Source: Dehalococcoidia bacterium (lineage in GTDB: Bacteria > Chloroflexota > Dehalococcoidia > GIF9 > UBA5629). Taken from it: a stretch of 24,000 nt of DNA. The notes beneath the pieces are model-generated. The model was not told the origin of the DNA. It saw only the letters and a list, made by a program, of their open reading frames with translations, and searched no databases. The stretch is from positions 9,977 through 33,976 of the forward strand of contig JBEKVW010000013.1 in NCBI GenBank assembly GCA_049513695.1, written 5' to 3'. The position numbers and the translations under genes are program-made. Positions 859 through 15,386 of this stretch are shown one piece after another (position 1 is the first letter of the stretch; every line of letters begins with the position of its first letter).

Positions 859-2631
859 CTAGGCCTTAGTGTAGAAACTCTGCGGGTCAAAGAGCCGCAG
901 GAGCATTTTCTCTTCATATGAAGGCAGGTCGATCTTCTTGAGGTGGGGTGCTACTTCCAGTTCCCAGCCTACCAGCCGCCTGATGCCCTTTATAGCCTCC
1001 TCCTCCCTTATGGCCGTGCCATAGGGAATATAAGAAGTCAGAGTCAGGGTATCCCTGCCCTCCTGTTTCTCGAAGATGCCCACGTCGGTTATGAGCGTCT
1101 TTACACGGTTCCCGGGAAAGGTTATGTAGGGCACTTGGGCGGGCAAGCGCTCTTTCCCCGAAGAAGCGAACACAATCGCTTCCCGGCAGGTGCTGGCCAC
1201 ATCGTTGGCGCCGCCCGAGCCTACTATGAAGAACACATTGGGTATCTTGGTCGAGTTGCCATTGCCGTACCTGTCCACCTGAGCCGCTCCGAGGACCCCC
1301 AGACAATTGCCGGCCGAGCCGCCCACCATGACCCCCAGTGCCATCTCGATATTGGTCAGGATTTTGCAGGATGGAAGGTTATCCATGCTGAAGACGGTGG
1401 GGTCGGAGGGCCTGGGCAAATAGCCGAACATGCCGATCTCGGCGACCAGTTCCACATCGTGCTTCTCGTCTTTCAATTTGTAGGCGGCCAGCCAGGCAGC
1501 CAGGTTAGAAACTCCCACACCGGCCAGTATGGTCTTATATCCCTTCGATACGCAAAGGTCGGCGATATACCTGCTGCCGGCGATAATCATCCTCTCGATC
1601 TGGTTGGATTCTTTAGGAAAGTCAACCTGCGGCACCGCCGCCAGGGTCTCAACCACCCACGAGTGGGGCTGGGCCTTGTCTTTCAGATAGCGCAACCTTT
1701 CCCTGCCTAGCTTGTCCAAATATAGCTCATGGCTCCTGCAATTAAGGATCCATTCCTGGATGAAACTCAGGAATTTGCTCTCATCCATGGAAGCGTCATT
1801 TATCAGGGTGGCGAACTCATAATCATCGAAGTAGCCTTCGAACTGCGGTATGCCGCTGTTGGAAAGGCCACCCGGATGCGCGCCGAAGGGCACTTCGCAG
1901 ACAGCCCTGACCATGTAGCCGGGTATGCGAACAAGATGTGCATGGCTCCGTATATAGTCCGTGGGCACAATGTGCTCCACGCTGACGATAACGCCTTCTT
2001 TAGACGCCCAGGCGCCGTAGGCATCGGTCCCCAGCGGATAGGGCAGGATAGTATTCCCGGCCCGGTCGGCTGCCAGGCCGTGCACCAGGGTTATATCCGG
2101 CCGCAGCGCTCGCAGCAGCCCGGTCTTTTCCCCCGTCCCAAAAGGAGAGTCGATCACAGAGAAATTTCCCTTATTTTCCTCGGCCATGCTGCTGCCGATG
2201 AGCGATCTGGTCGGTATGAACTCCCATCCCATAGCCCCTGCCAGCAGCCGCTGGGTAAGGGTCAGCATGGTCCAGTTTTCGAACTCGATAGACCCGGATA
2301 TATAGGCCTTCTGCACGTGCGGGTTGGGGCCGGGTGTGGGATATGAATTGCCCAGGAAGGTGGTCACAGCCTTTTTAATCATCTCTCCCCGTATAAGAGC
2401 CAGCAGGTAGGACGACGTGGACGGGCTGATCAGGGTGAAGTCGGGCCGTTTGCCCCAGAACTCACGGACGAGCTGAAAGAAAAGTGCCCCGCCTTTATTG
2501 GCTATGTGAATTGAGCTGCCGGCTCGGACATGCTTCGTGATGGCGTCGGTCATCGAGCAGACCTTGTCCTCACCCTCTATAGGAGCAATATGGAACTTTG
2601 AGTCGATGAATGCTTTTAAATCGTCTTCCAT
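859..2631 (-). CDS. Family I CoA-transferase, fused GctA-like (N-terminal) and GctB-like (C-terminal) halves
   Basis: 590-aa ORF. The N-terminal half is collinear with glutaconate CoA-transferase subunit A as I recall it (KVCSMTDAITKHV, IDSPFGTGEK, IPGYMVRAVCEVPFGAHPGG, FIQEWILNCRSHELYLDKLGRERL). The C-terminal half is beta-subunit-like, with a candidate catalytic Glu in VAEIGMFGY and a glycine-rich VGSGGANDV motif. Total length is about GctA plus GctB. It starts 18 nt after the upstream ORF on the same strand. Confidence 0.8.
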   Translation of the reverse strand: MEDDLKAFIDSKFHIAPIEGEDKVCSMTDAITKHVRAGSSIHIANKGGALFFQLVREFWGKRPDFTLISPSTSSYLLALIRGEMIKKAVTTFLGNSYPTPGPNPHVQKAYISGSIEFENWTMLTLTQRLLAGAMGWEFIPTRSLIGSSMAEENKGNFSVIDSPFGTGEKTGLLRALRPDITLVHGLAADRAGNTILPYPLGTDAYGAWASKEGVIVSVEHIVPTDYIRSHAHLVRIPGYMVRAVCEVPFGAHPGGLSNSGIPQFEGYFDDYEFATLINDASMDESKFLSFIQEWILNCRSHELYLDKLGRERLRYLKDKAQPHSWVVETLAAVPQVDFPKESNQIERMIIAGSRYIADLCVSKGYKTILAGVGVSNLAAWLAAYKLKDEKHDVELVAEIGMFGYLPRPSDPTVFSMDNLPSCKILTNIEMALGVMVGGSAGNCLGVLGAAQVDRYGNGNSTKIPNVFFIVGSGGANDVASTCREAIVFASSGKERLPAQVPYITFPGNRVKTLITDVGIFEKQEGRDTLTLTSYIPYGTAIREEEAIKGIRRLVGWELEVAPHLKKIDLPSYEEKMLLRLFDPQSFYTKA

Positions 2632-2649
2632 ATTGCTTGCCCGATCACA

Positions 2650-3051
2650 TTATACTTTATAACATACCTCCGGAAGCTTCACTCCCGGATTGCTCTCCCT
2701 TACGTAGCGCAGTAGCTGGTTGGCCAGCGAAATAGTTATCGTAGCCAGCTCATCGCCCTTGATCATCTCGACCTTTTCACCGCTGTACAATGCCCGCAGC
2801 CTGGCCGGGAACTCATCATCAGCTTTATTAAAGGCAAAATACACTATAACGCCGGGATACAGCTCTTTACTTATCGCCCAATCTTCATCCAGCCCGAGGC
2901 TTTCGACCCTGCCCCCCAGATAGCGCGCCAGCGCCCCAACGTCTCTGGCATATTCGAGTGCGGAAGCCCTCATTTTGAGCGCCCCTTTTACCTGTAATTG
3001 GTGAGGGCTGACCTTGCCCTCGATATCGGCCAGGTTGAGCAATTTCCTCAC
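2650..3051 (-). CDS. Small hypothetical protein, possibly DUF3786-like
   Basis: 133-aa ORF co-directional with cooC and the CoA-transferase. The segment LYPGVIVYFAFNKADDEFPARLRALYSG resembles the core of DUF3786-type proteins, which I recall being encoded beside ACS/corrinoid genes. The family assignment is from memory only. Confidence 0.55.
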   Translation of the reverse strand: MRKLLNLADIEGKVSPHQLQVKGALKMRASALEYARDVGALARYLGGRVESLGLDEDWAISKELYPGVIVYFAFNKADDEFPARLRALYSGEKVEMIKGDELATITISLANQLLRYVRESNPGVKLPEVCYKV

Positions 3052-3098
3052 TCGTTTATCCTGTTAAAGCTTTCCGTCTCTCCGGAGCTATGGGAATG

Positions 3099-3860
3099 TT
3101 AACGAATCCTGAGTTTGTAAAGTATTTCCTGCACCGCCCTGCGGAATGTGGAGTCCAAAGGCAGGAGCGTTAAGGGCTTTCCTCTGACGTCCAGTTCCGC
3201 GATAGCAGGGTCCTCCGGGATAGTGGCAAAGAGCATCAGCCCCGATTTGGTGATGGCCTCCTTCAGCTCCGGCTGCAAGCCGTTCCTGAGCCTGTTGACC
3301 ACCAGCAGCACGCCGCCCTTGATATTAGTGCGTATCTCCCCGCTGAGCTGCTGCAGGCGAATGCAGGTGTTGAGGCCGCGTATGGTGGGATCGGTAACCG
3401 CCAGCAGGTAGTCTATATCCTGTGTAGTCTGGCGGCTGATGTGTTCCAGGCCGGCCTCGCAGTCCATGATGACATAGTCATAGCTTTTAGCCAGCTTATC
3501 TATGGAGAAACGAATCATGTGGTTGGCGGCGCAGTAGCATCCAGGACCTTCCGGCCGCCCCATGGCCAGCAGGTCGAACCGGCTGGTCTCAACCAGCGAC
3601 TCATGGATGCGGCTGTCCAGTATCTCCTGCTTGGAGACAGCCATCGTCAGCCTCCCGCCCCTGATCTCGTCGGTCATCTTCTCGCGGGTCTTGCCTACAG
3701 TACTCTGTAGATCTACGCCCAGGGCGTCATTCAGGTTGGTGCTGGGATCGGCGTCCACCGCCAGCACGGCTCCCAGGTTGGATAAAAAATCGACCAGTAT
3801 GGCCGATATGGCAGTCTTGCCCACGCCTCCCTTTCCGGCAACAGCAATGGTCACAGTCAT
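3099..3860 (-). CDS. cooC: CooC/AcsF-family nickel-insertion ATPase (MinD/ParA fold)
   Basis: N-terminal P-loop AVAGKGGVGKT. Cys-x-Cys metal site in GPGCYCAANHM, typical of CooC/AcsF maturases. 253 aa. The start lies 4 nt downstream of the nuoF-like stop. Confidence 0.9.
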   Translation of the reverse strand: MTVTIAVAGKGGVGKTAISAILVDFLSNLGAVLAVDADPSTNLNDALGVDLQSTVGKTREKMTDEIRGGRLTMAVSKQEILDSRIHESLVETSRFDLLAMGRPEGPGCYCAANHMIRFSIDKLAKSYDYVIMDCEAGLEHISRQTTQDIDYLLAVTDPTIRGLNTCIRLQQLSGEIRTNIKGGVLLVVNRLRNGLQPELKEAITKSGLMLFATIPEDPAIAELDVRGKPLTLLPLDSTFRRAVQEILYKLRIR

Positions 3861-3864
3861 TTTA

Positions 3865-5784
3865 TTAAGGCTCCTTCGAAGGCGTTTCCGGCCTGGTCCG
3901 CCGGTTTTCCGGCACGAGACTGACCGGTGATAATCTTATCACAGCATTATACTCCACGGGGCAGACCAGCTGGCAACTGCCGCACTTGGTGCATTTAGAC
4001 TGGTCTACGACCTTCAGGCCGTTCTCATCGCTGAAAACCGCCTCCGCCGGGCAGGCCAGCACGCAGTGGTCGCAGCCTCTTTCGCACTTTTCGGGCAAAA
4101 TGTAATAGGCCGTCAGATCCTTGCAAACACGTGCCGGGCAGCGCTTCTCCAGAACATGAGCTTTATACTCCTCTTTGTAGTAGCGCAGCGTGGTCAGCAC
4201 CGGGTTGGGCGCCATCTTGCCCAGTCCGCAGAGCGAGCCGGCTTTAACATCGCGGCCAAGCTCTTCCAGCATATTAAGTCCTTCGAGGGTACCCTGGCCT
4301 TTGGTTATATCTTGCAGGATATCCAGCATATGAAAGGTACCTATGCGGCAGGGGGTGCATTTGCCGCAGGACTCCTGCTGACTGAAATCGGTGAAGAATT
4401 TGGCCGCATCCACCATGCAGTTATCCTCATCCATCACGATGATGCCGCCCGAGCCCATAATGGCCCCGGCCTCCTTCAGGGAATCGAAGTCCACAGGTGT
4501 GTCCAGCAGAGCTTCCGGAAGGCAGCCGCCGGAGGGTCCCCCGATCTGAACGCCCTTGAATTGCTTGTTGCCGCGTGTGCCGCCGCCGATATCGTAAACC
4601 AGCGTGCGCAGGGTCGTACCCATCGGCACCTCGGCCAGCCCGGTATAGTTGAGCTTGCCGGCCAGCGCAAACAGGGCAGTGCCCGGGCTCTTTTTTGTCC
4701 CGGTCCTCTTAAACCAGTTGCCACCATTATTGACTATCAGAGGAACATAGGCCAGCGTCTTTACATTGTTGACCAGCGTGGGCCTTCCCCATAGACCGGT
4801 TTCCGCCGGATAGGGCGGACGATGTTCCGGCCAGGAGCGCCTTCCCTCCATGGCCGCCGTCATAGCAGTCTCCTCACCGGATACAAAGGCCCCGGCGCCC
4901 TTAACTATTTCGATATCGAAATTGTACTTTGAGCCAAGTATATTTTTACCCAATAAGCCCTTATCCTCAGCCTGCGTCAATGCAGTTTGAAGCCTGGATA
5001 CGGCCAGGGGGTACTCCTCCCGGATATAGAAGAAGCCCTTTTGCGCTCCAACTGCGTAACCTGCAATAGCCATGCCTTCTATCACGGCATGGGGGTCGCT
5101 CTCCAGCAGCACCCGGTCCATAAAGGCGCCGGGGTCGCCTTCATCGGCATTGCAGACAATATACTTGATATCGCTTTTTACGGTATAACATGACCGCCAC
5201 TTGGCGGCGGTGGGGAATCCCGCACCTCCGCGCCCGCGCAGGCCCGACCTTTTCACTTCTTCAATCAATGCACCTGGCGCCATCGTCAGGGCCTTAGCCA
5301 GCGCTTTATAGCCTCCGCAGGCCAGATAGTGGTCGATCTCAAGGGGTGAGGTGTAGCCGCTATTGCGCAGCAGCAGCCTCTTCTCGTAAGCAAAGCGCTC
5401 CAGTTCCGGAATGATGGCGGGTTCCTGTCCGCCTCCCGTCACGCTACCGAGGGCCAGGTCGAAACAAGGATCGTCGCCGATTACATAGCCCTGTACCAGC
5501 CGGGGCACCATCTGAGGCGTTACGTGGTGGTAGCATATGGAGAAGTTGTCCGGCTTAATGATGGTCACCAGTGGCTCGTGGGAGCAGAGGCCCATGCAGC
5601 CCACTTCGGAGATGGCGACCGCCGCATCCAGGCCTTCTAATTCGCGTCTTAACGCCTCTAGAACGGCCATTGAACCGGCGGCGCGGCCGCAGGTAGCGGT
5701 ACCCACTAAAATATGGGTAATCCGGCCTTTATAAAGAGCTTCCCAGTTCGATACCGCCTGCCGGGATATCTTCTCAAAGCTCAT
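3865..5784 (-). CDS. nuoF: NuoF/HydB-type NAD(P)H-binding flavoprotein with an N-terminal thioredoxin-like 2Fe-2S domain and a C-terminal 2x[4Fe-4S] ferredoxin domain
   Basis: - GRGGAGFPTAAKW: FMN/NADH site of 51-kDa subunits.
- ESCGKCTPCRIG: N3 4Fe-4S motif.
- N-terminal GTATCG...GCMGLCSHEP: thioredoxin-like FeS domain.
- C-terminal CERGCDHCVLACP and CTKCGSCQLVCP motifs.
- ATGA overlap with the upstream nuoE-like gene. Confidence 0.9.
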   Translation of the reverse strand: MSFEKISRQAVSNWEALYKGRITHILVGTATCGRAAGSMAVLEALRRELEGLDAAVAISEVGCMGLCSHEPLVTIIKPDNFSICYHHVTPQMVPRLVQGYVIGDDPCFDLALGSVTGGGQEPAIIPELERFAYEKRLLLRNSGYTSPLEIDHYLACGGYKALAKALTMAPGALIEEVKRSGLRGRGGAGFPTAAKWRSCYTVKSDIKYIVCNADEGDPGAFMDRVLLESDPHAVIEGMAIAGYAVGAQKGFFYIREEYPLAVSRLQTALTQAEDKGLLGKNILGSKYNFDIEIVKGAGAFVSGEETAMTAAMEGRRSWPEHRPPYPAETGLWGRPTLVNNVKTLAYVPLIVNNGGNWFKRTGTKKSPGTALFALAGKLNYTGLAEVPMGTTLRTLVYDIGGGTRGNKQFKGVQIGGPSGGCLPEALLDTPVDFDSLKEAGAIMGSGGIIVMDEDNCMVDAAKFFTDFSQQESCGKCTPCRIGTFHMLDILQDITKGQGTLEGLNMLEELGRDVKAGSLCGLGKMAPNPVLTTLRYYKEEYKAHVLEKRCPARVCKDLTAYYILPEKCERGCDHCVLACPAEAVFSDENGLKVVDQSKCTKCGSCQLVCPVEYNAVIRLSPVSLVPENRRTRPETPSKEP

Positions 5785-6284
5785 GGGAGGCTTTCAGTCC
5801 CCGGTGCGCCTGGAGCAGCCGCCTTAATGTTTACAAAAGCCTCTTCGACCCGGGGCGGCGTCATCCTGGGATGGACTTCCCCGCCGATGGTTAGCACCGG
5901 GGCAAGAGCGCAGCAACCAATGCAAGCCACACGTTCCAGGCTGAATTCCATATCCCCGGTTGTTCCACCGATCTCTATCGCCAGCTCTCGCGCCGTGGCC
6001 TCGAGTACGAGCTGGCCACCTGCCAGGTGGCAGGCTGTGCCCAGGCAGACCTTGACCGGCTTCCTGCCCGGCGGCGTGAAGCGGAACTGATTATAGAAAG
6101 TCGCCACCCCCCACACCGAGCTGCCGGGTATATCCAGGAATTTAGAGACCTCCAGCATGGCCTGCCGGGATAGGTAACCCTGCTCCGCTTGTATATCTTG
6201 CAGGATATCGATCAAGTGCCGGCGTTGCCGGCGTTCCGGCCCCAGGACTCTCGATAAATCGTTATTTCTTGAATCGTTTTCCAT
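5781..6284 (-). CDS. nuoE: NuoE/HydC-type thioredoxin-like [2Fe-2S] ferredoxin subunit
   Basis: 167 aa with CLGTACHLAGG and CIGCCALAP cysteine motifs characteristic of the 24-kDa NuoE/HydC family. Its stop overlaps the nuoF-like start by 4 nt (5781-5784), implying translational coupling. Confidence 0.88.
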   Translation of the reverse strand: MENDSRNNDLSRVLGPERRQRRHLIDILQDIQAEQGYLSRQAMLEVSKFLDIPGSSVWGVATFYNQFRFTPPGRKPVKVCLGTACHLAGGQLVLEATARELAIEIGGTTGDMEFSLERVACIGCCALAPVLTIGGEVHPRMTPPRVEEAFVNIKAAAPGAPGTESLP

Positions 6285-6372
6285 ATCGCCCTTGTAAAAG
6301 CGTCCAAAATATATATACTCTGTATTTTAAAAGAAATGCTGAATATATGAAATGCGGAGGAACTTGCGGAAG

Positions 6373-6957
6373 ATGAATATAAGATGCGCAGCACTGCTGC
6401 TGGCATTTGCCGGCTCGTTAGTGCTGTCCGCCTGCCAGCCTTCCCTGTCGCCCGCAATACAATCTCCGCCTGCAATTCAGGCCGGGGAACCCGGCATCCA
6501 GGCATTCTTCCCCAGGGCAGGACAGGACCCGGCGCCCATCCTGGTGAAGCTTTATAACGAGGCCTCAACCAGCCTGGATATCGCCATTTACAGCCTGACA
6601 CATCCCGATATCGTTAAAGCCATCGGCGATGCCAAACAGCGTGGAGTGCAGGTGCGCGTCATAACGGACAGTGATTCCGCGACGGGAAACACGCAGAAGC
6701 ATGCTGTGAACGATCTTCTGAACCTGGGCATCCCCGTGAAGGTCAACCTCCACTCCGGCCTCATGCATTTGAAAATGAGCGTGATCGACGGCAAAACCGC
6801 TACCATAGGGAGCTATAATTACACGCTGAGTGCCAGCCAGCAGAACGACGAGGTCATGGCAGTCGTGACGCAGCCCGCCTTCGTCAAAAGCTGCCAGGAC
6901 GAGTTCAACCGGTTGTGGGATTCACCCGGTTTGACGAACGCCAAAGCCTCGTATTGA
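6373..6957 (+). CDS. Secreted lipoprotein, single-HKD phospholipase D superfamily (Nuc-like endonuclease type)
   Basis: - HKD motif HLKMSVIDGKTATIGSYN (HxKx4Dx6GSxN) at 6766-6819.
- The small size with one HKD copy is as in Nuc-type homodimeric nucleases.
- Signal peptide MNIRCAALLLAFAGSLVLSAC with lipobox L-S-A-C.
- The start at 6373 is preferred because GGAGG lies at 6356-6360; the alternative ATG is at 6352. Confidence 0.82.
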   Translation: MNIRCAALLLAFAGSLVLSACQPSLSPAIQSPPAIQAGEPGIQAFFPRAGQDPAPILVKLYNEASTSLDIAIYSLTHPDIVKAIGDAKQRGVQVRVITDSDSATGNTQKHAVNDLLNLGIPVKVNLHSGLMHLKMSVIDGKTATIGSYNYTLSASQQNDEVMAVVTQPAFVKSCQDEFNRLWDSPGLTNAKASY

Positions 6958-6996
6958 TGAGTGAATTAGCACGCTAGCGCATAAGCCGCTAGCTAA

Positions 6997-7083
6997 TCCA
7001 TATCCGAAAACCCCAGCTATGGTATTAGGATAAGTAATCATATTTGGATGGCTGAGGAAATCGTTAATCTAACCATTCAATGA
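6997..7083 (+). pseudogene. Relic of a transposase C-terminus (left arm)
   Basis: The + frame reads SISENPSYGIRISNHIWMAEEIVNLTIQ*. The segment SNHIWMAEEIVNL is homologous to SDHIWTFSEIVKL in the longer relic at 8340-8507 on the opposite strand. There is no upstream transposase body (stop at 6994-6996). Confidence 0.5.
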
Positions 7084-7636
7084 ATGGTTTTTCATCAGCC
7101 ACAATAAATCTTTTACGGGCAGCTATAATTTTGCCATCCGCACATATAGTCATGTCAATTTCGCCTTCCCCTCTCGGCAAATCAATAGTATAGATATCAT
7201 CTTCATCTGCGGCTCTGGCTTTACCATATATAAATCCTGCTATCATTACTCTTGCCGCTAAGTTTGATGCTGGCAACATAATAGACTTGTATCGAGTAGT
7301 GAGATCATCACCAAAATAAATAAAACGTGCAGTAGGAATCAAAAACCCATGTCCCTCTAATTTCACGTCTGCGCTTAACGTCAATCTTTGAATAGTGTTT
7401 CTTTCAACATTAATCCATTTCAAAAATCTATTGTTAACGGGGAGATTTTGTAACTGAATGTATATTAAATACCCATCTCCTTGATAAGATACTAATATTT
7501 TGGGTTTCTGCCAGATCAGAAAAAGAGAAGGGACTATTATTGCCATCGCCAGTGCAACAATGGTGGCAAAAATCGTAATCCATTCCAAGGGTGGAGGTGG
7601 AGAAGTAAATAACCAATATGTCGTTTGATTATCCAC
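7064..7636 (-). CDS. Hypothetical N-terminally membrane-anchored protein (paralog of 7721-8362)
   Basis: 190-aa ORF in an AT-richer stretch. One hydrophobic helix (WITIFATIVALAMAIIVPSLFLIW) is followed by a soluble domain. Weak but collinear similarity to the divergent neighbour supports real coding. GTG start without an obvious SD, so the start is uncertain. Confidence 0.55.
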   Translation of the reverse strand: MDNQTTYWLFTSPPPPLEWITIFATIVALAMAIIVPSLFLIWQKPKILVSYQGDGYLIYIQLQNLPVNNRFLKWINVERNTIQRLTLSADVKLEGHGFLIPTARFIYFGDDLTTRYKSIMLPASNLAARVMIAGFIYGKARAADEDDIYTIDLPRGEGEIDMTICADGKIIAARKRFIVADEKPFIEWLD

Positions 7637-7720
7637 GTTTTAATTTTATCACGCCGCATTCAAAATGACCCACTACCCGCTAGCCTGTAATTCTTATAAG
7701 ATACGGGGTAAAATAGGTGC

Positions 7721-8362
7721 GTGGGGTTTGGGTTCTTTTTATTCGCCATCCTTCTTCTTATTTTGCTTGCCTTTACTGGTGTTTTTGGCAAATTCCCAGA
7801 CAGTTGGTCATGGACTGGAATTGTATTGGCGGGGCTTGGTATAGTCATGACAGCCCCAACCATATTCCAAATGATCTTGGGCGGTCCGCGTGTCGATGTT
7901 GATTTTCGCGATTATATGCAATCAGGCACTAAGTTATTACAAGTATTTTTCAATAATCCCCCAGTCACGAACCGAGTATGGCGGTTTCTTGGGGTTCATC
8001 GTGAGACGGTAGCTAGCCTCAGTGCCCAATTTCGCATTAGCGAAGTGGGGAGCGGAACGATTATTGTTCCTATCCATCAAGCACCCTTATATGCAGACGA
8101 TGCTGATAGTGATGCTTGTAGACAGCGGATTCCCTTACCTCCAACTTACAGTGTGGGCGCAACCGCGGCGATTATATTATGGGATACACCGAATAAATGC
8201 GCTGTTATTCCCCCGGATCGGTTGAGACAACCAATTATTCTAAAACCCGGATATTATCAGGCTCATATTCTATTATTGGTGGATGGCTTGCCTAAACAGG
8301 TTTTACGACGGTTTACCGTAGGGACAAAAGCTGACGATCTTACTTGGTCACGCAAAGCTTGA
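7721..8362 (+). CDS. Hypothetical membrane-anchored protein (paralog of 7064-7636)
   Basis: 213-aa ORF with two N-terminal hydrophobic segments (FFLFAILLLILLAFTGVF, IVLAGLGIVMTAPTIFQMIL) followed by a soluble domain collinear with the neighbour. Examples: FFNNPPVTNRVWRFLGVHRETVASLSAQ vs LQNLPVNNRFLKWINVERNTIQRLTLSA, and LLVDGLPKQVLRRFTVG vs ICADGKIIAARKRFIVA. GTG start, uncertain. Confidence 0.55.
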   Translation: MGFGFFLFAILLLILLAFTGVFGKFPDSWSWTGIVLAGLGIVMTAPTIFQMILGGPRVDVDFRDYMQSGTKLLQVFFNNPPVTNRVWRFLGVHRETVASLSAQFRISEVGSGTIIVPIHQAPLYADDADSDACRQRIPLPPTYSVGATAAIILWDTPNKCAVIPPDRLRQPIILKPGYYQAHILLLVDGLPKQVLRRFTVGTKADDLTWSRKA

Positions 8363-8507
8363 CTATTTCCGAAAATGTCCAAATATGATCGCTGATTCCT
8401 ACTGCCATTGCTGGGGTTCTTGGATGAGGATTAGCCAATGATTTGTGTGTCCGGGCAAAGTTGTAGAACGTGAAATGCAGAGCCAGGGCGTACCTATATC
8501 TTGAATC
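8340..8507 (-). pseudogene. Relic of a DDE-type transposase C-terminus (right arm)
   Basis: The minus-strand frame reads RYALALHFTFYNFARTHKSLANPHPRTPAMAVGISDHIWTFSEIVKLCVTK*. The YNFxRxHxxL...TPAMA...DHxW...E tail is a pattern I recognise from IS transposase C-termini; the family is uncertain, possibly IS1-like. The frame is closed by TAA at 8508-8510, so only about 55 codons survive. Confidence 0.6.
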
Positions 8508-8569
8508 TTATTTGAGAATCAATCGGTCTGCCGGGTAAACGACGCTAGAGGTTGTGCAGCACAACGAGA

Positions 8570-9937
8570 TCAGTTCTTCCAGCTCTTGACCAGGCTGGGG
8601 AGGTACGAGGGTATCTCGTTGGCCTCCCGAGGGCCGACTATGATTTCCCAGTCGGGCAATGCCTCGGTTAGCTCATGCCGTATGCGGGCCACCTTGCCGG
8701 GTATTACCAGCCTCCGGTGGTTGACCTTGCTCTCGATGCTGCATTTCTTGATGAAGGGGGCGATGTTGTCGCCGCTGAACTTGCCAGCCGCCCAGGCCGT
8801 CAGTACCCCCAGGCCGCCCGCCTCCTTGACGCACAGCCAGGAAGGGACCTTGCTGCTCTCTATCTCAGATGAGACGATAAAGTAGGTCAGCGCCCAGTTA
8901 GTAGTTATCAATACGGGGGAGCTGGCATCTGGGTTATTGATGGGGTAGACCTTCTCTTCCATGGACATGGGAATACGGGGATCCGTGTAAATATTCATCC
9001 TCTGCACCAGCAGCGGCAGCAGGGAATGCTCATCGATATCGGAAAGGACGATGATGCCGGCGTACTTGGTTATGAATGTTGAAGCCAGCAATATCTCGCG
9101 CTGCCTGTCCCCGGTCATAAAGCAGGGGAAGGCCACGGTGGGGTATCCCAGCGGCCTGAAGACCTGCTTGAGAGCCGCACGCCGTATGAGAGTCTGGTCC
9201 CTGATGGCCGACTGTAAATTCCTGGATCCCGGGTCCAGCAAAATATCCTCCAGCCCCGCTTCTTTGAGGCGGCTGGTCAGCGGCACCAGCGATTCCACAC
9301 CGGCGGCCTTGACCGCCACCACGGCGGGCCTGGCCTGGACGGCGCTAATGATTTTTTCCAGGTTCTGTGCGGTGACCGGGTATAGCACCGGCTTCCTCCC
9401 GGCACACAAATTGTGCGCATCCAGCAGGGCATCGGTATCGTCGGACATCAACATCAGGGGACAGTCGGTAACGGGCAATACTTTTTTAACCAGCGCTTGA
9501 TATGCAGCGCGGTCACCCGATGCGTGCCGCAGCGCCAGCATATCGGCCTTCAGCACCTTGCCCACCCAGTGAAACTGCAGCTCCTTCAGCTTCTTAATTT
9601 TGGCATCTACCGCGTCCGCCGGCTCGTCGTCCGAGATCAGCACCGCCATGCCCGGCTGGTGAATGAAGGTCTTCTCATGGCGGTAAAGCACCTGCTCGTC
9701 GCCTATAGTCAGGGCATTGGCGCCCATACCGACCGTAACCGGCTTGATGGGCGGGGAGAGGGCGTCCTCCAATTCGATCCTTACTTCGGGCGAAATATAA
9801 GGGCATCTATCGATGGCAATTCCGCCCGAAGCCAGCTTCATGGCAAATGCGAAACAGGTGGGCAGTCCGCACTCTTTACAGTTTTTCTTGCCGCCTTCGG
9901 GCAGCTTCTTAACTATATCTGTACCTTTGATCGCCAA
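8570..9937 (-). CDS. acsC: Corrinoid iron-sulfur protein, large subunit (AcsC / CdhE-like)
   Basis: 455 aa. N-terminal 4Fe-4S motif CKECGLPTCFAFAMKLASGGIAIDRCPY (Cx2Cx4Cx16C) followed by TIM-barrel and corrinoid-binding regions typical of the CFeSP large subunit. TTG start with AAGGAGAG upstream. 12 nt after the ACS stop. Confidence 0.9.
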   Translation of the reverse strand: MAIKGTDIVKKLPEGGKKNCKECGLPTCFAFAMKLASGGIAIDRCPYISPEVRIELEDALSPPIKPVTVGMGANALTIGDEQVLYRHEKTFIHQPGMAVLISDDEPADAVDAKIKKLKELQFHWVGKVLKADMLALRHASGDRAAYQALVKKVLPVTDCPLMLMSDDTDALLDAHNLCAGRKPVLYPVTAQNLEKIISAVQARPAVVAVKAAGVESLVPLTSRLKEAGLEDILLDPGSRNLQSAIRDQTLIRRAALKQVFRPLGYPTVAFPCFMTGDRQREILLASTFITKYAGIIVLSDIDEHSLLPLLVQRMNIYTDPRIPMSMEEKVYPINNPDASSPVLITTNWALTYFIVSSEIESSKVPSWLCVKEAGGLGVLTAWAAGKFSGDNIAPFIKKCSIESKVNHRRLVIPGKVARIRHELTEALPDWEIIVGPREANEIPSYLPSLVKSWKN

Positions 9938-9949
9938 GCGTCTCTCCTT

Positions 9950-11179
9950 TTAAACGGGCAGTTTAACCTCGCCCTTGACCCACGGGTGGCCCACGCGATC
10001 CAGGAACTCCCCAAGTTCCTCCACATTCCTGACGTCATTTTCCGTGGCTATCTTGTCGTATAAATCCATCGGGCAGGCGTCCCGGTAAAGCTCTTTGATG
10101 GCCTGCGGCATCCAGACGATCCTGTACCATCCGCCGTCGGCCTTGAGGAAGCTGGGTGAACGCAGGTATTCCAGAGCCATGCCCAGGTACCCTTCCACCT
10201 GGCGGCCCCCGCTGGTATCGCCGGCCATCTCGGTAAACGGCACGCCTACGACGGTGTCGCCCTCGAAATCACGGTTCACAATACCGAAGGCGTCAACCTC
10301 CGGTATATAGAAGCAGATGGACTGGAAGCAGCCGCAGGAGGTATGGGGATAACCAAAGGCGCTGTGTAAATACGTCTTATCATAGGCTCCCATCGATTTC
10401 TCCACGGCCAGCTTATTGACTCCCTCATATTCCCCCCTGATAGGGTCGATGATGAAGCCCTTCTTCACCCGCTGGATCGGCCCCTCGTTATCGAGCTGAT
10501 AGGCCGCCTTGCCGTCGAACCAGTTGATGGCGCCGCAGTTGGCGATGCGCTCCGGGGTAATGCAGCAGATATGGGTGGGAGCAAAGCTCTGGCAGAGGGC
10601 GCAGCTGTAAAACTCATCCACATCAGCCTCGCGCAGGCCGCGTATCTTTTCGTCACGGGTACGGTAAACCTCCATGGCCTTCTGCAGAAGCTCTTCGACC
10701 CTGGCGGGGTCGGTGATGATGGTGATCTGTATCTTTTCGATGATATCGATCTCGGACGTATAGAGGAAAATCAGAATCTCGCCAAGCGTCTTCAACGATT
10801 TCAGCCCTTTATTGAAGGACTCTTTTTTCAAACGCATCCAGACGTCCTGCCGCTGGTTCATATGGTAGAACCCCTCGATGTAATTCAAATATAGATGCAG
10901 GCGGCGTTCCAGGACCGGCTCTATATCCTTTTCCAGCCGCGCTCCCGCCACATCCACCAGCAGGGCGATAGGTTGGCTGCTGCCCTCAGGGATATCCGGT
11001 ATGTCCGGGCCGATTACCTCGACCTTTTCGTGCGTGACCTCTTCAGGCTTCTTAATCGTTACCAGCTCGAATTTGGACTTGACGTTGGGGCCGCCCAACT
11101 CGACCAACATGTCGGCCTTCCTGATGACCTCGCCCTCATATTGGGGCCCTATGTCAACCGGGAATACTCCGTCAGACAT
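9950..11179 (-). CDS. acsB: Acetyl-CoA synthase catalytic subunit, short archaeal CdhC-like form (lacks the bacterial AcsB N-terminal domain)
   Basis: 409 aa. It starts FPVDIGPQYEGEVIRKADMLVELGGP, like archaeal CdhC. A-cluster ligands are intact: CALCQSFAPTHICCITPERIANCG (Cys193, 196, 205/206, 215) and the Ni-binding HTSCGCF (Cys282-Gly-Cys284). Confidence 0.92.
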   Translation of the reverse strand: MSDGVFPVDIGPQYEGEVIRKADMLVELGGPNVKSKFELVTIKKPEEVTHEKVEVIGPDIPDIPEGSSQPIALLVDVAGARLEKDIEPVLERRLHLYLNYIEGFYHMNQRQDVWMRLKKESFNKGLKSLKTLGEILIFLYTSEIDIIEKIQITIITDPARVEELLQKAMEVYRTRDEKIRGLREADVDEFYSCALCQSFAPTHICCITPERIANCGAINWFDGKAAYQLDNEGPIQRVKKGFIIDPIRGEYEGVNKLAVEKSMGAYDKTYLHSAFGYPHTSCGCFQSICFYIPEVDAFGIVNRDFEGDTVVGVPFTEMAGDTSGGRQVEGYLGMALEYLRSPSFLKADGGWYRIVWMPQAIKELYRDACPMDLYDKIATENDVRNVEELGEFLDRVGHPWVKGEVKLPV

Positions 11180-11281
11180 ACCGCACCCGCCTTTTAGTTA
11201 ATATACGTTCTTCCATATCAATATTGACTATATATTATATCCGCAGGGATTGGGGTTATCCTAATGCCGATGGCCCGGTTT

Positions 11282-13576
11282 TCAATGGACGACCTCGTCC
11301 AGGGTCACGCTGGAAGGATAGGTGCCGATCAAAGTGGGCAGGGACAGCACCGGCTTCTCTTTCCAACCGGCCTCGTTCAGTTTTGCCTGCAGGTCTTTCT
11401 TATAGAAAATGGGTATATCCGAAGCTTTTCTCACGAATAGGCCCACATCTTCCGGCAACTTGCCGAAATACTGCTTGTGAAGTCCGATGTAATGGGTGAG
11501 CTTGGTCGAGCGCCCCTGCGGGGTATCGTTCTTGCGCATGCAGAGCCTGGCCAGCGCCACCATGGCGGCGCCCTTGTCGGCCAGCAAATTGAGCAAGTGC
11601 TCCGGAGACGGTTCACCGGTATCGACAGGCTTCTTCTCCCGGCCGTCCATCACGCTCCAGTCGGTTTCGCCCGGCCTGCTGAGATAAAGCCGGCCATATT
11701 TAATGCAGTGCGGCCCTACGATGACCGGTATGCCCAGCCGGTTGCAGCCGGTAGCCAGGGCCAGCTCCTCCTCGCCGCAGGCGCCCCAGGCCAACCCGCA
11801 GGCGCCGACGCGGTTGAGTATATAATCAGCGACCACTTCGTAGTTGGCCCTCAACGGCAGGGCGGCGAATATGCTGGCAATCTTGATGGCGGCCCCGGAT
11901 ATATGGGCAGCTGCTGTGCCGGACCCTATATTGACGATGCCACCAGCTTCGAAATCAGGCGGGTATTTCTCATAAATTGATTTATCGTCGGCATCCTTCT
12001 TCAATGCCGCGGCAATTGCAGACTCTCCTGCCAGCACCACCACGTATTTACGTTTGGCAAATTCCTCGGCTATCTCCGCGATATCGTCGGGCGACCCCGG
12101 ATAGTTCGAACTGCCGACGATGGCTATCACACCTGGTATGGTGCCCAGCACCAGCGGAGCGCCGACTTTCCTGATCTCCGTATCCATGACAGGGCCGCGC
12201 CCCACACGCATCTTGGCGGATTCCTGTCGCGCCGCCCCCTGCATCATGCGCAATACCGGCACCTGCCCTTTCACAGCGGCTTCGCATTTGCCGCAGCCTA
12301 TGCATTTTTCGAACACTTCTGCCAGCAGTCCGAACTCGTTATGCGCGGCGGCCTCGATGGCGCCGGCGATGGGCAGCTTGTTGGGGCAGGCTTCATCGCA
12401 CGGCTTGCAGGACTTATACTGGGCGGCCATCCCGGCCACCTCTTCCTGTTTTAAAATCGATTTCTTCCTGGAAGATGAGAGCTTAAGCGCAGCTTCCACG
12501 GCTACAGCAGCCGCCTTCCTGGGATCGAGCACCAGGGCCCCTTTCCCCTGATGAAGGTCGACCAGTATCTCCTCGGTATCCTTAGCCGTGACATCCGCGA
12601 ACCCATAAGCCGCCCGGGCATCCGTAGCAATGAAGGCCGCTCCACCGGCGGCCGTCTCGGCGGGTATATCCGTCAGCAAATTGCCGCCCCCGCACATCAC
12701 CACATCGGCCACACCCAGCCGCAGGATATAGAGCAGCCTGGATAACGGGCCTGCAATCCTGGCCCTGGAGCTGTAGCGAACCAGTTCGTGTCCTACCGGA
12801 CCCATGCCGGCCACCAGGACTTTATCCTCCAACCTGCTATTTTTAATGTAATCCACCAGGCAAACGGCCGAGACCGTATCGTTGCCGATAACAAGTATGA
12901 CCGGTTTGTCCATTGGAAGCGAGGCCCAGCCCACCTCAACCAGTGGCGTATCGGCATTGGAGGTCGGGAAGCCGAACCCGGATATCTGGGCGATATCCGC
13001 CGCCTCCATAGCTACATGGCTGAGCATGGAGGCCTGCAGCGCTTTGGACTCGAAATCCAGGTTGGAGCCTTCGATGCCCGTATTGGCTGCGGTAAGCAGC
13101 AGAGTAGTCTGATGCTCTATGTATGACAAAACCCTGTCCAGATCGCCCAGGGTGGCGGGCTTGAGTCCGATTACGGTCCTGATATGGGGGGCTTCGATGC
13201 TTACCTTATCGCCCGGCTCAAGGGTCATCTCCCTGCCTTTGACATCAATCAAATAGCCGACGATCCTCCTGGCCCTGGCCGTGGAAAGCGCTAGGCCCTC
13301 GCAGCACGACTGTAAATTGAGGCGCGCCTGCATGACGACGCCGTCTATGCCGCAGGAACCCTTCCTGCCGTCTGAGAGGTCGCATTCGCCGTAGGTACAC
13401 AGGTTACACCTGTCAGTGACGGGAACGTAAAGGGGCTTCCATGTCTGCAGCAGCCGGCGGTCCCAGTTCCTGAGATCGAGAATGCCGGGCAAGGGGGTGT
13501 GTCCTACCGGCTCCCAGCTGTCCTCGGCATGTATAAATTCCCGGGCTTCCCTGCCTTGCCGCTCTGTTTTAGCCAC
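11282..13576 (-). CDS. cdhA: CODH-fold protein, CdhA-like with ferredoxin-type insert; C-cluster and D-cluster ligands substituted (predicted non-catalytic)
   Basis: 764 aa. GTG start with AGGAGG 8 nt upstream. The N-terminus (HTPLPGILDLRNWDRRLL...RCNLCTYGECDL..GSCG) and overall collinearity match the archaeal-type CODH alpha subunit. B-cluster cysteines are kept. The HGHN, GICCTGNE, GCNN, TGC and GSC ligand motifs read VIGND, GMGPVGHE, VGSSN, LAGE and IGSGT (see findings). Confidence 0.85.
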   Translation of the reverse strand: MAKTERQGREAREFIHAEDSWEPVGHTPLPGILDLRNWDRRLLQTWKPLYVPVTDRCNLCTYGECDLSDGRKGSCGIDGVVMQARLNLQSCCEGLALSTARARRIVGYLIDVKGREMTLEPGDKVSIEAPHIRTVIGLKPATLGDLDRVLSYIEHQTTLLLTAANTGIEGSNLDFESKALQASMLSHVAMEAADIAQISGFGFPTSNADTPLVEVGWASLPMDKPVILVIGNDTVSAVCLVDYIKNSRLEDKVLVAGMGPVGHELVRYSSRARIAGPLSRLLYILRLGVADVVMCGGGNLLTDIPAETAAGGAAFIATDARAAYGFADVTAKDTEEILVDLHQGKGALVLDPRKAAAVAVEAALKLSSSRKKSILKQEEVAGMAAQYKSCKPCDEACPNKLPIAGAIEAAAHNEFGLLAEVFEKCIGCGKCEAAVKGQVPVLRMMQGAARQESAKMRVGRGPVMDTEIRKVGAPLVLGTIPGVIAIVGSSNYPGSPDDIAEIAEEFAKRKYVVVLAGESAIAAALKKDADDKSIYEKYPPDFEAGGIVNIGSGTAAAHISGAAIKIASIFAALPLRANYEVVADYILNRVGACGLAWGACGEEELALATGCNRLGIPVIVGPHCIKYGRLYLSRPGETDWSVMDGREKKPVDTGEPSPEHLLNLLADKGAAMVALARLCMRKNDTPQGRSTKLTHYIGLHKQYFGKLPEDVGLFVRKASDIPIFYKKDLQAKLNEAGWKEKPVLSLPTLIGTYPSSVTLDEVVH

Positions 13577-13588
13577 AGCATCAGCCTC

Positions 13589-14494
13589 CTAAATTTTTCC
13601 TTCTATGGCTTCCTTCAATAACCTGCAATTATCCGGGTGGCGCAATACCAGGATGTCTCCTCCGGCCAGCAGCAGGCTCATAGCTGTAACGCTTTCCCAA
13701 TGCATGCCCTGTTCCCGGTCGGCCCTGGCCTGGTTGGTCTTCCAGCATTCACCGCCCAGGTCGGCAATGATGGGCATCTGCATGGCCACATCGCCGAATA
13801 TAACTCCTATCTGCCGGGTGCGCTCCATGATGGTAAAGCTGTATTCCATGCCGTAACCCAGCGCCGAGCTCAGCGGGTCGATGACTATCCTCTCCGGCGG
13901 GAGCTGTTTCAACAATTTAACGTTAAGCTCCTTCTCCAGGTTGAGGTCGATGGGCGTCTGGGCAATGATGCAGTGCCCGTTTTCGGCCACCGCCCGGGCA
14001 AGGGCTTCGTAATTTTCTTTAACAGCGGGCCCCAGCAGGAGGTTCTCCCCTTTGCAGGCCACAGCCACCGCGGTGAGCACCTCAACATCCTTTTTATCAT
14101 CTCCACAGCCGTAGACGATCAGGGGAACATTCACCTTCGAGCTGACCTTCTTCGCCAGAGCGGCCGCCTCCGCTGCGGGGCGGTTCGCCCCCTGCGGGTC
14201 CGTTCCGTCAAGGTGCAGGCAGATTAGGTCAGCTCCCAAGCCGAGGCACTTTTGGGCCCATTTTACCGGATCAGAGACCACATCCTTATAAGGCTCCACC
14301 ACCCACTGAGCCCAGCCGGCAGCACCGTTATCATTAACTTCCAGCGCCACCAGCGGCCTGTTTACCACGCTGCCTTCAAAATAATGCAGGGGCAGGATAT
14401 TACCCCCGCCGATCTTCAGAGCACCCGCCCCTTTGCCCAGCGTTACTTCCTTGACCCTTCCAGTGTACGTCTCCAGAGGCGCTTTATAGTCCAT
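13589..14494 (-). CDS. acsD: Corrinoid iron-sulfur protein, small subunit (AcsD / CdhD-like)
   Basis: 301-aa TIM-barrel-type protein between acsE and the cdhA-like gene. The size, position and N-terminus (YTGRVKEVTLGKGAGALKIGG) are typical of the CFeSP small subunit. Only 13-nt gaps to its neighbours. Confidence 0.85.
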   Translation of the reverse strand: MDYKAPLETYTGRVKEVTLGKGAGALKIGGGNILPLHYFEGSVVNRPLVALEVNDNGAAGWAQWVVEPYKDVVSDPVKWAQKCLGLGADLICLHLDGTDPQGANRPAAEAAALAKKVSSKVNVPLIVYGCGDDKKDVEVLTAVAVACKGENLLLGPAVKENYEALARAVAENGHCIIAQTPIDLNLEKELNVKLLKQLPPERIVIDPLSSALGYGMEYSFTIMERTRQIGVIFGDVAMQMPIIADLGGECWKTNQARADREQGMHWESVTAMSLLLAGGDILVLRHPDNCRLLKEAIEGKI

Positions 14495-14507
14495 ATCTAT
14501 ACCTCAA

Positions 14508-15386
14508 CTAGGATTCCAGCCATGCGTGAGAATAGAGCGCTTCACCCATCAGCACCCTGGCCGTTTTGACATAGTTCTTCTCTTTCTCCGGCAACTCGGC
14601 CGCATCGACCGGTTCCCCGTCCATAACCTTATAAATAAGGCTGCGAATAGCCGACTGACCGTCATGATTCAGCTCGATCAGCTCCGGGTCGAGCACATCA
14701 GCAATGGCCGAATAAAGCCCATTCTTCTCCAGCATCAGCATATAGGTGCGGTTGAGGATGCCGCGCAGGTCGGGCGGCGTCCCGTTGGAGACGTTGGAAA
14801 GGCCGACTACCGACTTAACGCCAGGGAGCAGGTCGGGCAGTATCTTGATGAACTCCAGCGCCTCGCGTACCTGTTTCTGATCGGCGCTCACCGGCAGGAT
14901 AATGGGGTCAATCCAGATATCCTCGGTGCCGATGCCCAGCTCATTGGCGTAGGCCACGGTATCCATAACGCTCTCCACCCGCGAATCAACGTCCGGCGGG
15001 CAGCCCTGGTCGGTTATCACGGAGATTATCACCTGTGTACGGTATTTAACTGCCAGCGGCATCATATTCGATTTGCTTTCGGATTTCCCCGAGGCCGAGT
15101 TCAACAGTGGCCGCTTCTTACATATCTTCAAACCGGCCTCCATGGCCAGGGGATTCATGGTATCCAGCGAGATGGGCAGGTCGGCCACCTCCTGGACGGT
15201 GTTTACCAGCCAGGCTCCGACCACTTCAGGGTCTTTGCGGGCCGGGCCGAGGTTTAAATCGAGGTAATCTGCTCCCGCTTTGGACTGTTCCCTGGCAAGC
15301 GACTGGATAGGTGCAGCATCCCGGTTCCTGACCGCCTCGCTAACAACCTTCGAGATGATATGGATATTTTCGCCGATTAAGATCAT
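14508..15386 (-). CDS. acsE: Methyltetrahydrofolate:corrinoid/iron-sulfur protein methyltransferase (pterin-binding domain)
   Basis: 292 aa. It starts MILIGENIHIIS...AGADYLDLNLGPA, the typical start of MeTr/AcsE pterin-binding TIM barrels. First gene of the acs operon on the minus strand. Confidence 0.88.
   Translation of the reverse strand: MILIGENIHIISKVVSEAVRNRDAAPIQSLAREQSKAGADYLDLNLGPARKDPEVVGAWLVNTVQEVADLPISLDTMNPLAMEAGLKICKKRPLLNSASGKSESKSNMMPLAVKYRTQVIISVITDQGCPPDVDSRVESVMDTVAYANELGIGTEDIWIDPIILPVSADQKQVREALEFIKILPDLLPGVKSVVGLSNVSNGTPPDLRGILNRTYMLMLEKNGLYSAIADVLDPELIELNHDGQSAIRSLIYKVMDGEPVDAAELPEKEKNYVKTARVLMGEALYSHAWLES

Follow-up and report, generated by a model that had tools for sequence, protein, structure and literature searches.

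A Dehalococcoidia acetyl-CoA synthase operon that retains a carbon monoxide dehydrogenase subunit without its catalytic metal ligands

The DNA analysed here is a stretch of 24,000 nucleotides from contig JBEKVW010000013.1 of a Dehalococcoidia bacterium (the window; positions without a locus name are those of this whole stretch). Between positions 859 and 15386 it carries a cluster of genes for an acetyl-CoA synthase (ACS) module, all on the minus strand, and one of these genes encodes a homologue of the carbon monoxide dehydrogenase (CODH) subunit CdhA that lacks the ligands of its C-cluster and D-cluster and is here called CdhA*. Gene identities were assigned by Pfam, NCBIfam and PDB sequence searches, and all genes named in an initial annotation of the sequence were recovered in the single-strand layout that it had described. 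The cluster consists of the following features (lengths in amino acids, aa).

14508..15386, minus strand: AcsE-like methyl-tetrahydrofolate (methyl-THF):corrinoid/Fe-S protein methyltransferase, 292 aa (Pfam Pterin_bind, E 5e-20)
13589..14494, minus strand: AcsD, small subunit of the corrinoid iron-sulfur protein (CFeSP), 301 aa (Pfam CdhD, E 4e-41; syntenic in all loci)
11282..13576, minus strand: CdhA*, the CdhA homologue without C-cluster or D-cluster ligands, 764 aa (8riu_A, E 1e-200)
9950..11179, minus strand: CdhC-type ACS, 409 aa (Pfam CdhC, E 4.5e-59, and ACS_CODH_B_C, E 6e-76)
8570..9937, minus strand: AcsC, large subunit of the CFeSP, 455 aa, with an N-terminal [4Fe-4S] motif (Pfam FeS, E 2e-11, and CdhD, E 2.5e-94)
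6285..8569, no strand: low-GC secondary insert between acsC and nuoE, marked by its GC content and differing cargo
5781..6284, minus strand: NuoE/HydC-like [2Fe-2S] protein, 167 aa (Pfam 2Fe-2S_thioredx, E 8e-43)
3865..5784, minus strand: NuoF/HydB-like flavoprotein, 639 aa (Complex1_51K, E 2e-46; NADH_4Fe-4S, E 1e-30; Fer4 families)
3099..3860, minus strand: CooC/AcsF-type Ni-insertion ATPase, 253 aa (3kje_A (CooC1), E 2e-23; P-loop GKGGVGKT; CyC motif)
2650..3051, minus strand: DUF3786-like open reading frame (ORF), 133 aa (a weak match, Pfam DUF3786 at 26.5 bits, cut-off 27)
859..2631, minus strand: fused family-I CoA-transferase, 590 aa, with GctA-like and GctB-like halves (Pfam CoA_trans, PF01144, E 7e-22)

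The ORFs of the window that were scanned contained no CODH, CdhB or RACo domain, in line with the initial annotation, which had reported the window to hold no functional CODH, no cdhB and no RACo. The C-cluster of active enzymes is held by one His and five Cys, and in CdhA* all of these are replaced (N232, G259/P260, N299, S489, E518 and G553), as are the catalytic Lys and all three CHAAHGRH histidines. The individual replacements are:

C-cluster His: vigHn in active enzymes, vigNd in CdhA*
C-cluster Cys1: glCCt in active enzymes, gmGPv in CdhA*
C-cluster Cys2: deqC in active enzymes, gggN in CdhA*
C-cluster Cys3: GCxNY in active enzymes, GSsNY in CdhA*
C-cluster Cys4: tGCg in active enzymes, aGEs in CdhA*
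C-cluster Cys5: gSCvs in active enzymes, gSGta in CdhA*
Catalytic Lys: SQKA in active enzymes, GEEE in CdhA*
Three His of CHAAHGRH: S, R and R in CdhA*

Written as ligand columns, CdhA* thus reads T,C,N,C,C,C in the N-terminal motif and N,G,P,N,S,E,G at the C-cluster, with Lys changed to Glu. In the N-terminal CxxCCxCx4C, Cys 1 and 3 (of CxxCC, the D/B-cluster motif) are gone, and because of this loss no D-cluster is possible, while the motif Cx2Cx4Cx9C stays, with four invariant Cys in a CooS-like B-cluster spacing. The ferredoxin (E/F) insert of the 764-aa protein has 6 of its 8 Cys left; motif 1 has lost its first Cys and motif 2 its last, and one full set of four Cys remains. CdhA* is unable to bind a C-cluster or a D-cluster and is almost certainly inactive for CO/CO2; with the genes of this locus alone, CO and CO2 cannot be converted into each other. 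What had been called a pseudo-CODH in the initial annotation is therefore just that, a protein in which every C-cluster ligand, the catalytic Lys and the CHAAHGRH histidines are replaced, yet whose gene is retained.

The overall fold of CdhA* is that of the clade A Ni-CODH family, with an N-terminal helical domain, two Rossmann folds and a C-terminal extension. The protein aligns over its full length to the solved CdhA structures 8riu_A (E 1e-200, 45% identity), 9c0q_A (4e-167) and 3cf4_A (2e-156), and an AlphaFold2 monomer model (predicted template modelling score, pTM, 0.82) gives Foldseek template modelling (TM) scores in the range 0.83-0.85, with 0.85 to 8riu and 0.84 to 9c0q-t. On the cdhA equivalog model TIGR00314 the sequence scores 832.6 bits, above the cut-off of 781.3.

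Among the 120 closest database clusters (at 90% identity), 44 share the ligand losses of CdhA*, with all C-cluster ligands gone in 44/44 members. They are 62-95% identical to the window protein, are labelled as metagenome-assembled genomes (MAGs) of Dehalococcoidia or Chloroflexi, and are monophyletic in a neighbour-joining tree. The next relatives are Dehalococcoidia CdhA proteins at 57-60% identity with every ligand present. Two lengths occur in the clade, a 764-aa form with the degenerate ferredoxin insert and a form of ~695 aa, to which most members belong, where the insert is fully deleted. The reading frame is intact in the 44 clusters, which come from independent assemblies (NCBI, ENA, JGI and Logan), and the operon architecture recurs in 9 further independent genome loci. 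The dead-CdhA architecture is not an effect of chance or assembly.

Ratios of non-synonymous to synonymous substitution (dN/dS), estimated with NG86 among the nine clade genome loci, are 0.089 for CdhA* overall, 0.031 for residues 456-640 and 0.03-0.15 across all regions, and are approximate values since dS is ~1-1.4 and thus near saturation; for comparison gyrB gave 0.051, CdhC 0.045, NuoF 0.117 and the CoA-transferase 0.078. Conservation follows the same division of the protein. Rossmann fold 2 (456-640) is as conserved in the clade as in intact CdhA (0.93 and 0.94), followed by the C-terminal domain (641-764; 0.87 vs 0.93) and by the N-terminal part with Rossmann fold 1 (1-375; about 0.75 vs about 0.9), whereas the ferredoxin insert (376-455) has fallen to 0.25 from 0.91. 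Purifying selection on CdhA* is strong, above all in Rossmann fold 2 and the C-terminal domain. This is in agreement with the earlier proposal of a disabled but retained CODH subunit, and a fresh pseudogene is ruled out by the dN/dS values and the depth of the clade. The former ligand positions vary inside the clade (N/S/D/H/C/G at the His, N/S/D/V/I/G at Cys2), which argues against a new active site in CdhA*, while the sequence GACGEEEL, replacing the catalytic-Lys motif, is almost invariant.

A profile search of 1.84 billion representatives found many CdhA lineages with partial ligand loss. Complete loss cannot be called unique to the clade, as the search also showed a single other fully ligand-less lineage, represented by P0395 and P0410, in a non-ACS context. 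P0395 (L087 310-2955) is an 881-aa CdhA-like protein of an unrelated lineage with D,G,P,N,D,D,A at the C-cluster positions, Lys changed to Glu and all eight E/F Cys kept; its contig carries PIN, nucleotidyltransferase and SMC-like genes and a 1052-aa multi-Prismane protein (L087 8812-11970), with no adjoining ACS genes. Another sequence, P0116 (L085 2039-4120), is a 693-aa CdhA with no ferredoxin insert that keeps 3 of 5 C-cluster Cys (E,G,S,C,G,C,C) and is encoded in an acsE-acsD-cdhA-cdhC cluster from which cdhB is missing. It may mark an intermediate stage in the degeneration of CdhA, or else a sister lineage of it.

The partner proteins present a different picture, since degeneration is confined to CdhA and CdhB: the cofactor Cys of CdhC, AcsC, NuoE, NuoF and CooC are kept in every clade locus examined. 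The ACS, described as an intact CdhC-type protein in the initial annotation, has indeed every A-cluster Cys (C193, C196, C205/206, C215, C282 and C284, in the motifs CalCqsfapthiC...nCg and htsCgC), and these are conserved in 9/9 clade loci. It matches 9c0s_E (E 4e-132), scores 575 bits on TIGR00316 (cut-off 356) and is composed of domains A2 and A3 only, with no A1 domain and no C-terminal extension. The CFeSP, AcsE and Ni-insertase are intact as well: AcsC and CooC keep their cofactor Cys and AcsE has its domain match. The [4Fe-4S] ligands C20, C23, C28 and C45 of AcsC are conserved in 9/9 clade loci, and AcsC, AcsD and AcsE have the features of their families; AcsE falls under the cut-off of NF005719 (E 9e-66, 221.7 bits against 259), and its gene is the first of the operon in every related locus, with dN/dS 0.07. 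CooC has a deviant Walker A motif, GKGGVGKT, and conserved C108 and C110 (C-y-C). In NuoE the four cluster Cys are conserved in the clade, as are all cluster Cys of NuoF, which is built from an N-terminal 2Fe-2S-like part, an FMN/NADH domain, the N3 [4Fe-4S] site and a C-terminal 2x[4Fe-4S] part; since it scores under the equivalog cut-off of TIGR01959 (E 9e-139, 462 bits against 559), it is not a respiratory NuoF proper. The CoA-transferase is glutaconate-CoA-transferase-like, with matches to 1poi_A (E 3e-17) and 1poi_B (E 5e-6), and in its sequence no SENG motif, no catalytic Glu in the beta half and no NCBIfam equivalog match were found. A set of extra Cys is fixed in the dead-CdhA clade and not in intact relatives (CdhC C206, C289 and C369; AcsC C159; CooC C166; NuoF C156).

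The gene order was compared by a contig scan with one genome per species, of which the best 80 of 256 CdhA-type matches were taken, corresponding to 9 clade loci and 71 loci with intact CdhA (~22 kb each), with synteny determined by tblastn and gap ORFs assigned by Pfam. In Dehalococcoidia with intact CdhA the typical order is acsE-acsD-cdhA-(DUF166)-cdhB-cdhC-acsC-nuoE-nuoF-cooC-DUF3786, often located between gyrB/dnaA and mutL, and the same order is found in a few Thermodesulfobacteriota and Syntrophales, where CdhA has every ligand. In these intact-CdhA loci (L010-L081), whose proteins share 55-75% identity with those of the clade, nuoE also follows acsC and DUF3786 homologues of 52-60% identity occupy the same position. 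In contrast to the clade they have all CODH ligands, cdhB (PF02552; 68/71 loci vs 0/9 in the clade) and sometimes DUF166, while a CoA-transferase gene after DUF3786, at a gap of 18 bp, is found in 8/9 clade loci vs 0/71. Only three features are thus clade-specific, namely the ligand loss, the loss of cdhB and the placement of the CoA-transferase after DUF3786.

The initial annotation had regarded the flavin/FeS module and the Ni-insertase as the cluster's own, and had proposed a synteny search for the pseudo-CODH with nuoEF and cooC. The combination does recur throughout the clade, but it is not special to the pseudo-CODH, the same linkage being present in loci with intact CdhA and CdhB. The linkage of nuoEF and cooC as a special adaptation is ruled out; it is ancestral and shared with ligand-complete relatives. 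Because intact-CdhA operons have this order, the linkage predates the loss of CODH and is uninformative on it. Likewise, the CoA-transferase is no invention of the clade, as Chloroflexi commonly carry homologues of ~60% identity in other, unrelated gene contexts, one of them beta-oxidation-like, and only its position is clade-specific. Four intact-CdhA loci (L043, L046, L047 and L048, at ~12300-15000) have a second, more divergent nuoE-nuoF pair (40-48% identity) between cdhA and cdhB. This arrangement points to NuoEF-type modules as dedicated redox partners for active CODH, like the F420 reductase subunit in Ca. Ethanoperedens. The DUF166 gene (PF02593, E 1e-56; L011 12311-13009 and ~20 other intact loci) also stands between cdhA and cdhB and is missing from the dead-CdhA clade.

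The cluster of the window is interrupted between acsC and nuoE. The GC content falls to 0.40-0.46 at ~6500-8500 from 0.55-0.60 (about 0.57) in the surroundings, and three ORFs were identified in this insert:

6352-6957, plus strand: phospholipase D (PLD)/DrmC-like nuclease (PLDc_2, E 1e-32; DrmC models, E 2e-15)
7064-7636, minus strand: ORF without family match
7721-8362, plus strand: ORF without family match

Two of the three are on the strand opposite to the operon. The PLD gene is common to the window and the clade loci L001-5, L007 and L009 and is not found in L006 and L008, and the other cargo differs. The secondary nature of the insertion, already recognised in the initial annotation, agrees with its low GC content, its opposite-strand ORFs and a cargo that varies among close relatives. 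The acsC-nuoE gap appears as an insertion hot spot, with a PLD/DrmC-like gene there in most 764-aa clade members; in L001 (15300-17966) the gap contains HicB and other ORFs, and in L006 cooC is followed by a gene for a 1033-aa PLD-SNF2 helicase. The two half-clusters directly adjoin each other in L008. A promoter and terminator scan across the insert of the window gave counts at chance expectation.

A possible reason for keeping a dead CdhA is found in the structures of archaeal enzymes. Cryo-electron microscopy of the Methanosarcina thermophila complex has demonstrated that an ACS without an A1 domain packs its A-cluster on Rossmann fold 2 and the C-terminal extension of CODH, where CODH residues Arg500, Leu504 and Val507 (helix alpha-A) and Phe601 (helix alpha-B) stand in for the bacterial A1 domain and make up both a CO alcove over the proximal Ni and the gate of the gas channel (PMC11474084). 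A 2026 preprint reached the same conclusion for M. acetivorans and places bacterial CdhC of Chloroflexota in a clade that has neither terminal extension (PMC13370988). In the alignment of CdhA* with 9c0q_A, whose numbering agrees with that of PMC11474084, the equivalent pairs are Arg500/R469, Leu504/A473, Val507/V476 and Phe601/F570. R469, A473, V476 and F570 are invariant in 44/44 clade members and in 75/75 intact relatives, and the whole alpha-A stretch of CdhA* is almost invariant. Since the alcove residues are invariant and Rossmann fold 2 is the most constrained part, the portion of CODH that serves the ACS active site is the portion that selection has kept. In comparison with the Methanosarcina acetyl-CoA decarbonylase/synthase (3cf4 and 9c0q-t; Biester et al. 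2024, PMC11474084; Zimmer et al. 2026 preprint, PMC13370988), the module thus shares the CdhA fold (TM 0.83-0.84), a two-domain CdhC and the Rossmann-fold-2 residues contacting the A-cluster. Unlike the archaeal complex it has no C-cluster, D-cluster or CdhB, its E/F ferredoxin domain is degenerate or deleted, its CdhC lacks the disordered C-terminal extension, and it uses a CFeSP and a methyltransferase of bacterial type (AcsC/AcsD/AcsE).

Taken together, the best overall explanation, to which we give a probability of roughly 0.6, is a working ACS module in which CdhA* is a non-catalytic structural subunit. As judged from the aligned sequences and the model, CdhA* has probably been retained as a lid and docking partner of ACS. 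The A1-less CdhC would need Rossmann fold 2 of CdhA to close over the A-cluster in carbonylation as well as in decarbonylation, and because of this dependence a lineage could lose CO/CO2 catalysis but not the CdhA subunit. CO would then move as free gas, in or out, by way of the vestigial channel and the cavity vacated by the C-cluster.

Dehalococcoides mccartyi reportedly has an incomplete Wood-Ljungdahl pathway, as Zhuang et al. are said to have described in 2014. In this organism ACS and CFeSP without CODH cleave acetyl-CoA with release of CO (Deobald et al. 2020, PMC7005905; Price et al. 2021, PMC7857596), and acetate-derived methyl groups feed methionine synthesis; it has no CODH gene and no acsE, and the methyl group has been proposed to pass directly from the CFeSP to core-MetE/MesB (PMC7005905, PMC7857596). 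A pathway of this type is also marked by the absence of metF. The initial annotation made this comparison correctly, with two differences, as acsE is present here and the CdhA scaffold is kept. Both systems belong to Dehalococcoidia and have ACS and CFeSP with no CODH activity encoded in the locus, and as far as the capacity encoded in our locus is concerned the only options for acetyl-CoA, as in D. mccartyi, would be cleavage that liberates CO as free gas or synthesis that draws on free CO. Unlike D. mccartyi, the locus has a full-length dead CdhA under purifying selection, and acsE, nuoEF, cooC, DUF3786 and the CoA-transferase. One of the intact-CdhA loci, L042 (DYGU01000004.1), is titled 'Dehalococcoides mccartyi isolate BE2012_46_32' and encodes CdhB, CdhC, two nuoEF pairs and a CdhA with every ligand; as this conflicts with the CODH-less D. 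mccartyi genomes, the title is probably wrong.

By analogy with D. mccartyi we favour cleavage with release of CO as the net direction, although we would rate this at somewhat under an even chance. Acetyl-CoA would be split into CoA, CO and methyl-CFeSP, and the methyl group would pass to methyl-THF via AcsE for one-carbon supply; in the alternative direction acetyl-CoA would be synthesised from scavenged CO. The CooC homologue is retained without any C-cluster, so that its client would by elimination be the A-cluster, which it would mature in an AcsF-like manner. NuoEF is conserved even where CdhA* has no ferredoxin domain (L008), and for this reason its client is more likely the CFeSP or the A-cluster than CdhA*. 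Inherited from the ancestral operon, NuoEF might reductively activate the CFeSP, encoded immediately upstream, or the A-cluster, in keeping with the proposal of the initial annotation, but that it serves reductive activation at all we consider doubtful. Functional coupling of the CoA-transferase to ACS is plausible, though tentative, because homologues of the enzyme occur in unrelated contexts.

Several points weigh against this interpretation. The invariant Cx2Cx4Cx9C motif and, in the 764-aa forms, the remaining set of four Cys are unexplained by a purely structural role, and selection on CdhA* was estimated close to the saturation of dS. The docking of CdhA* to CdhC derives from a monomer model and from conservation mapped through an alignment, and the alcove residues, being equally invariant in intact CdhA, would indicate that an old function was retained and not that a new one arose. 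D. mccartyi works without any CdhA, and if its ACS also lacks A1 the argument for an indispensable lid would be weakened. The adjacency of the CoA-transferase could be simple inherited gene order. In the genome studied here the insert, with its opposite-strand genes, probably splits the cluster into two transcription units (acsE-acsC and nuoE to the CoA-transferase gene). A CooS-type CODH elsewhere in the genome would change the physiology but not the scaffold role.

Such a separate enzyme is the core of one alternative, in which a ligand-complete CODH, of CooS type or a second CdhA, is encoded elsewhere in the genome and CO diffuses to ACS. The Wood-Ljungdahl pathway would then be normal, CdhA* a left-over docking subunit, and CO neither released nor scavenged. 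About 30% of CODH-carrying genomes do have several isoforms (PMC13056359), and neither the window nor the 22-kb loci say anything against a distant gene. However, the scan gave no second CdhA-type locus from the nine CdhA* genomes among the best 80 of 256 matches, a weak argument as the scan is blind to CooS-type enzymes, while it did list two loci from a single Syntrophales genome. CODHs of clades A, E and F rarely co-occur (PMC13056359), and exchanging a channelled CODH for free diffusion would be unusual for a gas that is toxic and kept at low steady-state levels. We regard a separate CODH as unlikely, but as the main alternative.

It is also conceivable that CdhA* has gained a new redox or catalytic function, for instance as a non-CO 'catalytic-like' subunit of a NuoEF (HydBC-type) flavin complex, for which complexes built from dead catalytic subunits are a precedent. 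The invariance of the B-cluster-like four-Cys motif, the one ferredoxin set of four Cys retained in the 764-aa forms, the near invariance of GACGEEEL at the former catalytic Lys and the conservation of NuoEF beside the operon would all fit, and in Ca. Ethanoperedens a CODH is known to carry an additional flavin reductase subunit (PMC11493965). This explanation is nevertheless improbable: the former active-site positions vary within the clade, which speaks against a new metal or substrate site, and most members have deleted the ferredoxin insert yet keep NuoEF, which is thus independent of the clusters of CdhA*. Furthermore, CdhB, which in the Ethanoperedens complex helps to form the docking site of the reductase, is lost, and the NuoEF linkage was not acquired but is ancestral. 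That the cluster, or cdhA* alone, is a functionless decaying relic or an artefact of assembly or annotation would agree with the loss of every catalytic ligand and with the disruption of the operon by the insert in this genome. It is effectively refuted by a frame that is intact in 44 clusters diverging to ~62% identity, by dN/dS of 0.03-0.15 in every region and by partners that keep their cofactor ligands.

Incomplete active-site motifs have been described before for Ni-CODH. The groups A-4 and A-6 of Inoue et al. 2019 keep 4 of 5 C-cluster Cys (D,P,C,C,C,C and N,S,C,C,C,C; PMC6344411), and these groups and CODH-V-type variants resemble CdhA* in their incomplete motifs and in having no D-cluster Cys, whereas CdhA* keeps none of the five C-cluster Cys. 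Later CODH surveys discard ligand-lacking sequences by design (PMC8776680, PMC13240472), and a genomic-context study of 2026 is silent on them (PMC13056359). Our literature searches brought up no account of an ACS operon whose CdhA lacks all ligands, and the nearest cases are the partial A-4 and A-6 of Inoue. The closest solved structure by sequence is the F420-reducing CODH of Ca. Ethanoperedens thermophilum (8riu; Lemaire et al. 2024, PMC11493965), whose operon-encoded flavin reductase subunit offers a model for the ancestral role of NuoEF. That enzyme is active and has CdhB and an FrhB-like F420 reductase, in contrast to the dead CODH and the NuoEF/HydBC-like module described here.

Outside the cluster, the window also carries mutL, RNase H, gyrB, a nadD-like gene, obg and the end of dnaA. 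The ACS operon adjoins gyrB, obg, nadD and dnaA in both dead-CdhA and intact-CdhA lineages (window 19554-23936; L001 2280-7457), so beside the likely replication origin, and its chromosomal position is stably conserved. Between acsE and RNase H/gyrB (15535-18813) there is a group of genes for an ArsR-family regulator, two C_GCAxxG_C_C proteins, a Methyltransf_31 S-adenosylmethionine-dependent methyltransferase and a nitroreductase. The group is present in L003, L004 and L009, partial in L005 and L007 and missing in L001, and it may be a metalloid- or redox-responsive islet.

The dead-CODH ACS operon is a variant of CODH-less ACS, in a clade of uncultured soil and sediment Dehalococcoidia for which we found no prior description; the disablement of CODH is well supported, and the system-level picture drawn in the initial annotation was partly right. 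In NCBI and JGI records CdhA* is named 'CO dehydrogenase/acetyl-CoA synthase subunit alpha' and some relatives 'subunit epsilon'. Because it scores above the NCBI cdhA equivalog cut-off, CdhA* is credited as a working CODH, and this is an annotation trap, in that reconstructions of these MAGs, which to judge by their record titles derive from fen and other environmental metagenomes, will wrongly credit them with reduction of CO2 to CO and a complete Wood-Ljungdahl pathway. CODH surveys err in the opposite way, as ligand-less sequences are silently dropped. The clade also constitutes a natural experiment for recent structural proposals on CODH/ACS, and it favours the view that the active-site machinery of an ACS without A1 includes the CODH subunit.

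If no other CODH is present in these genomes, CODH-free use of ACS extends beyond D. mccartyi to a broader, non-organohalide-respiring and acsE-bearing group, with consequences for CO cycling in anoxic soils. It is tempting to speculate, and we do so only tentatively, that this Dehalococcoidia lineage of soil, peat and freshwater sediment is fully CODH-free and runs a stand-alone ACS, either as a CO-venting decarbonylase or as a CO-scavenging synthase, with the dead CdhA as an obligatory lid that provides the CO alcove and the gas gate. CdhA* would then be a natural separation-of-function variant of CODH/ACS, and these Dehalococcoidia would be an unrecognised biological source or sink of CO that is now mis-scored as Wood-Ljungdahl autotrophs or homoacetogens.

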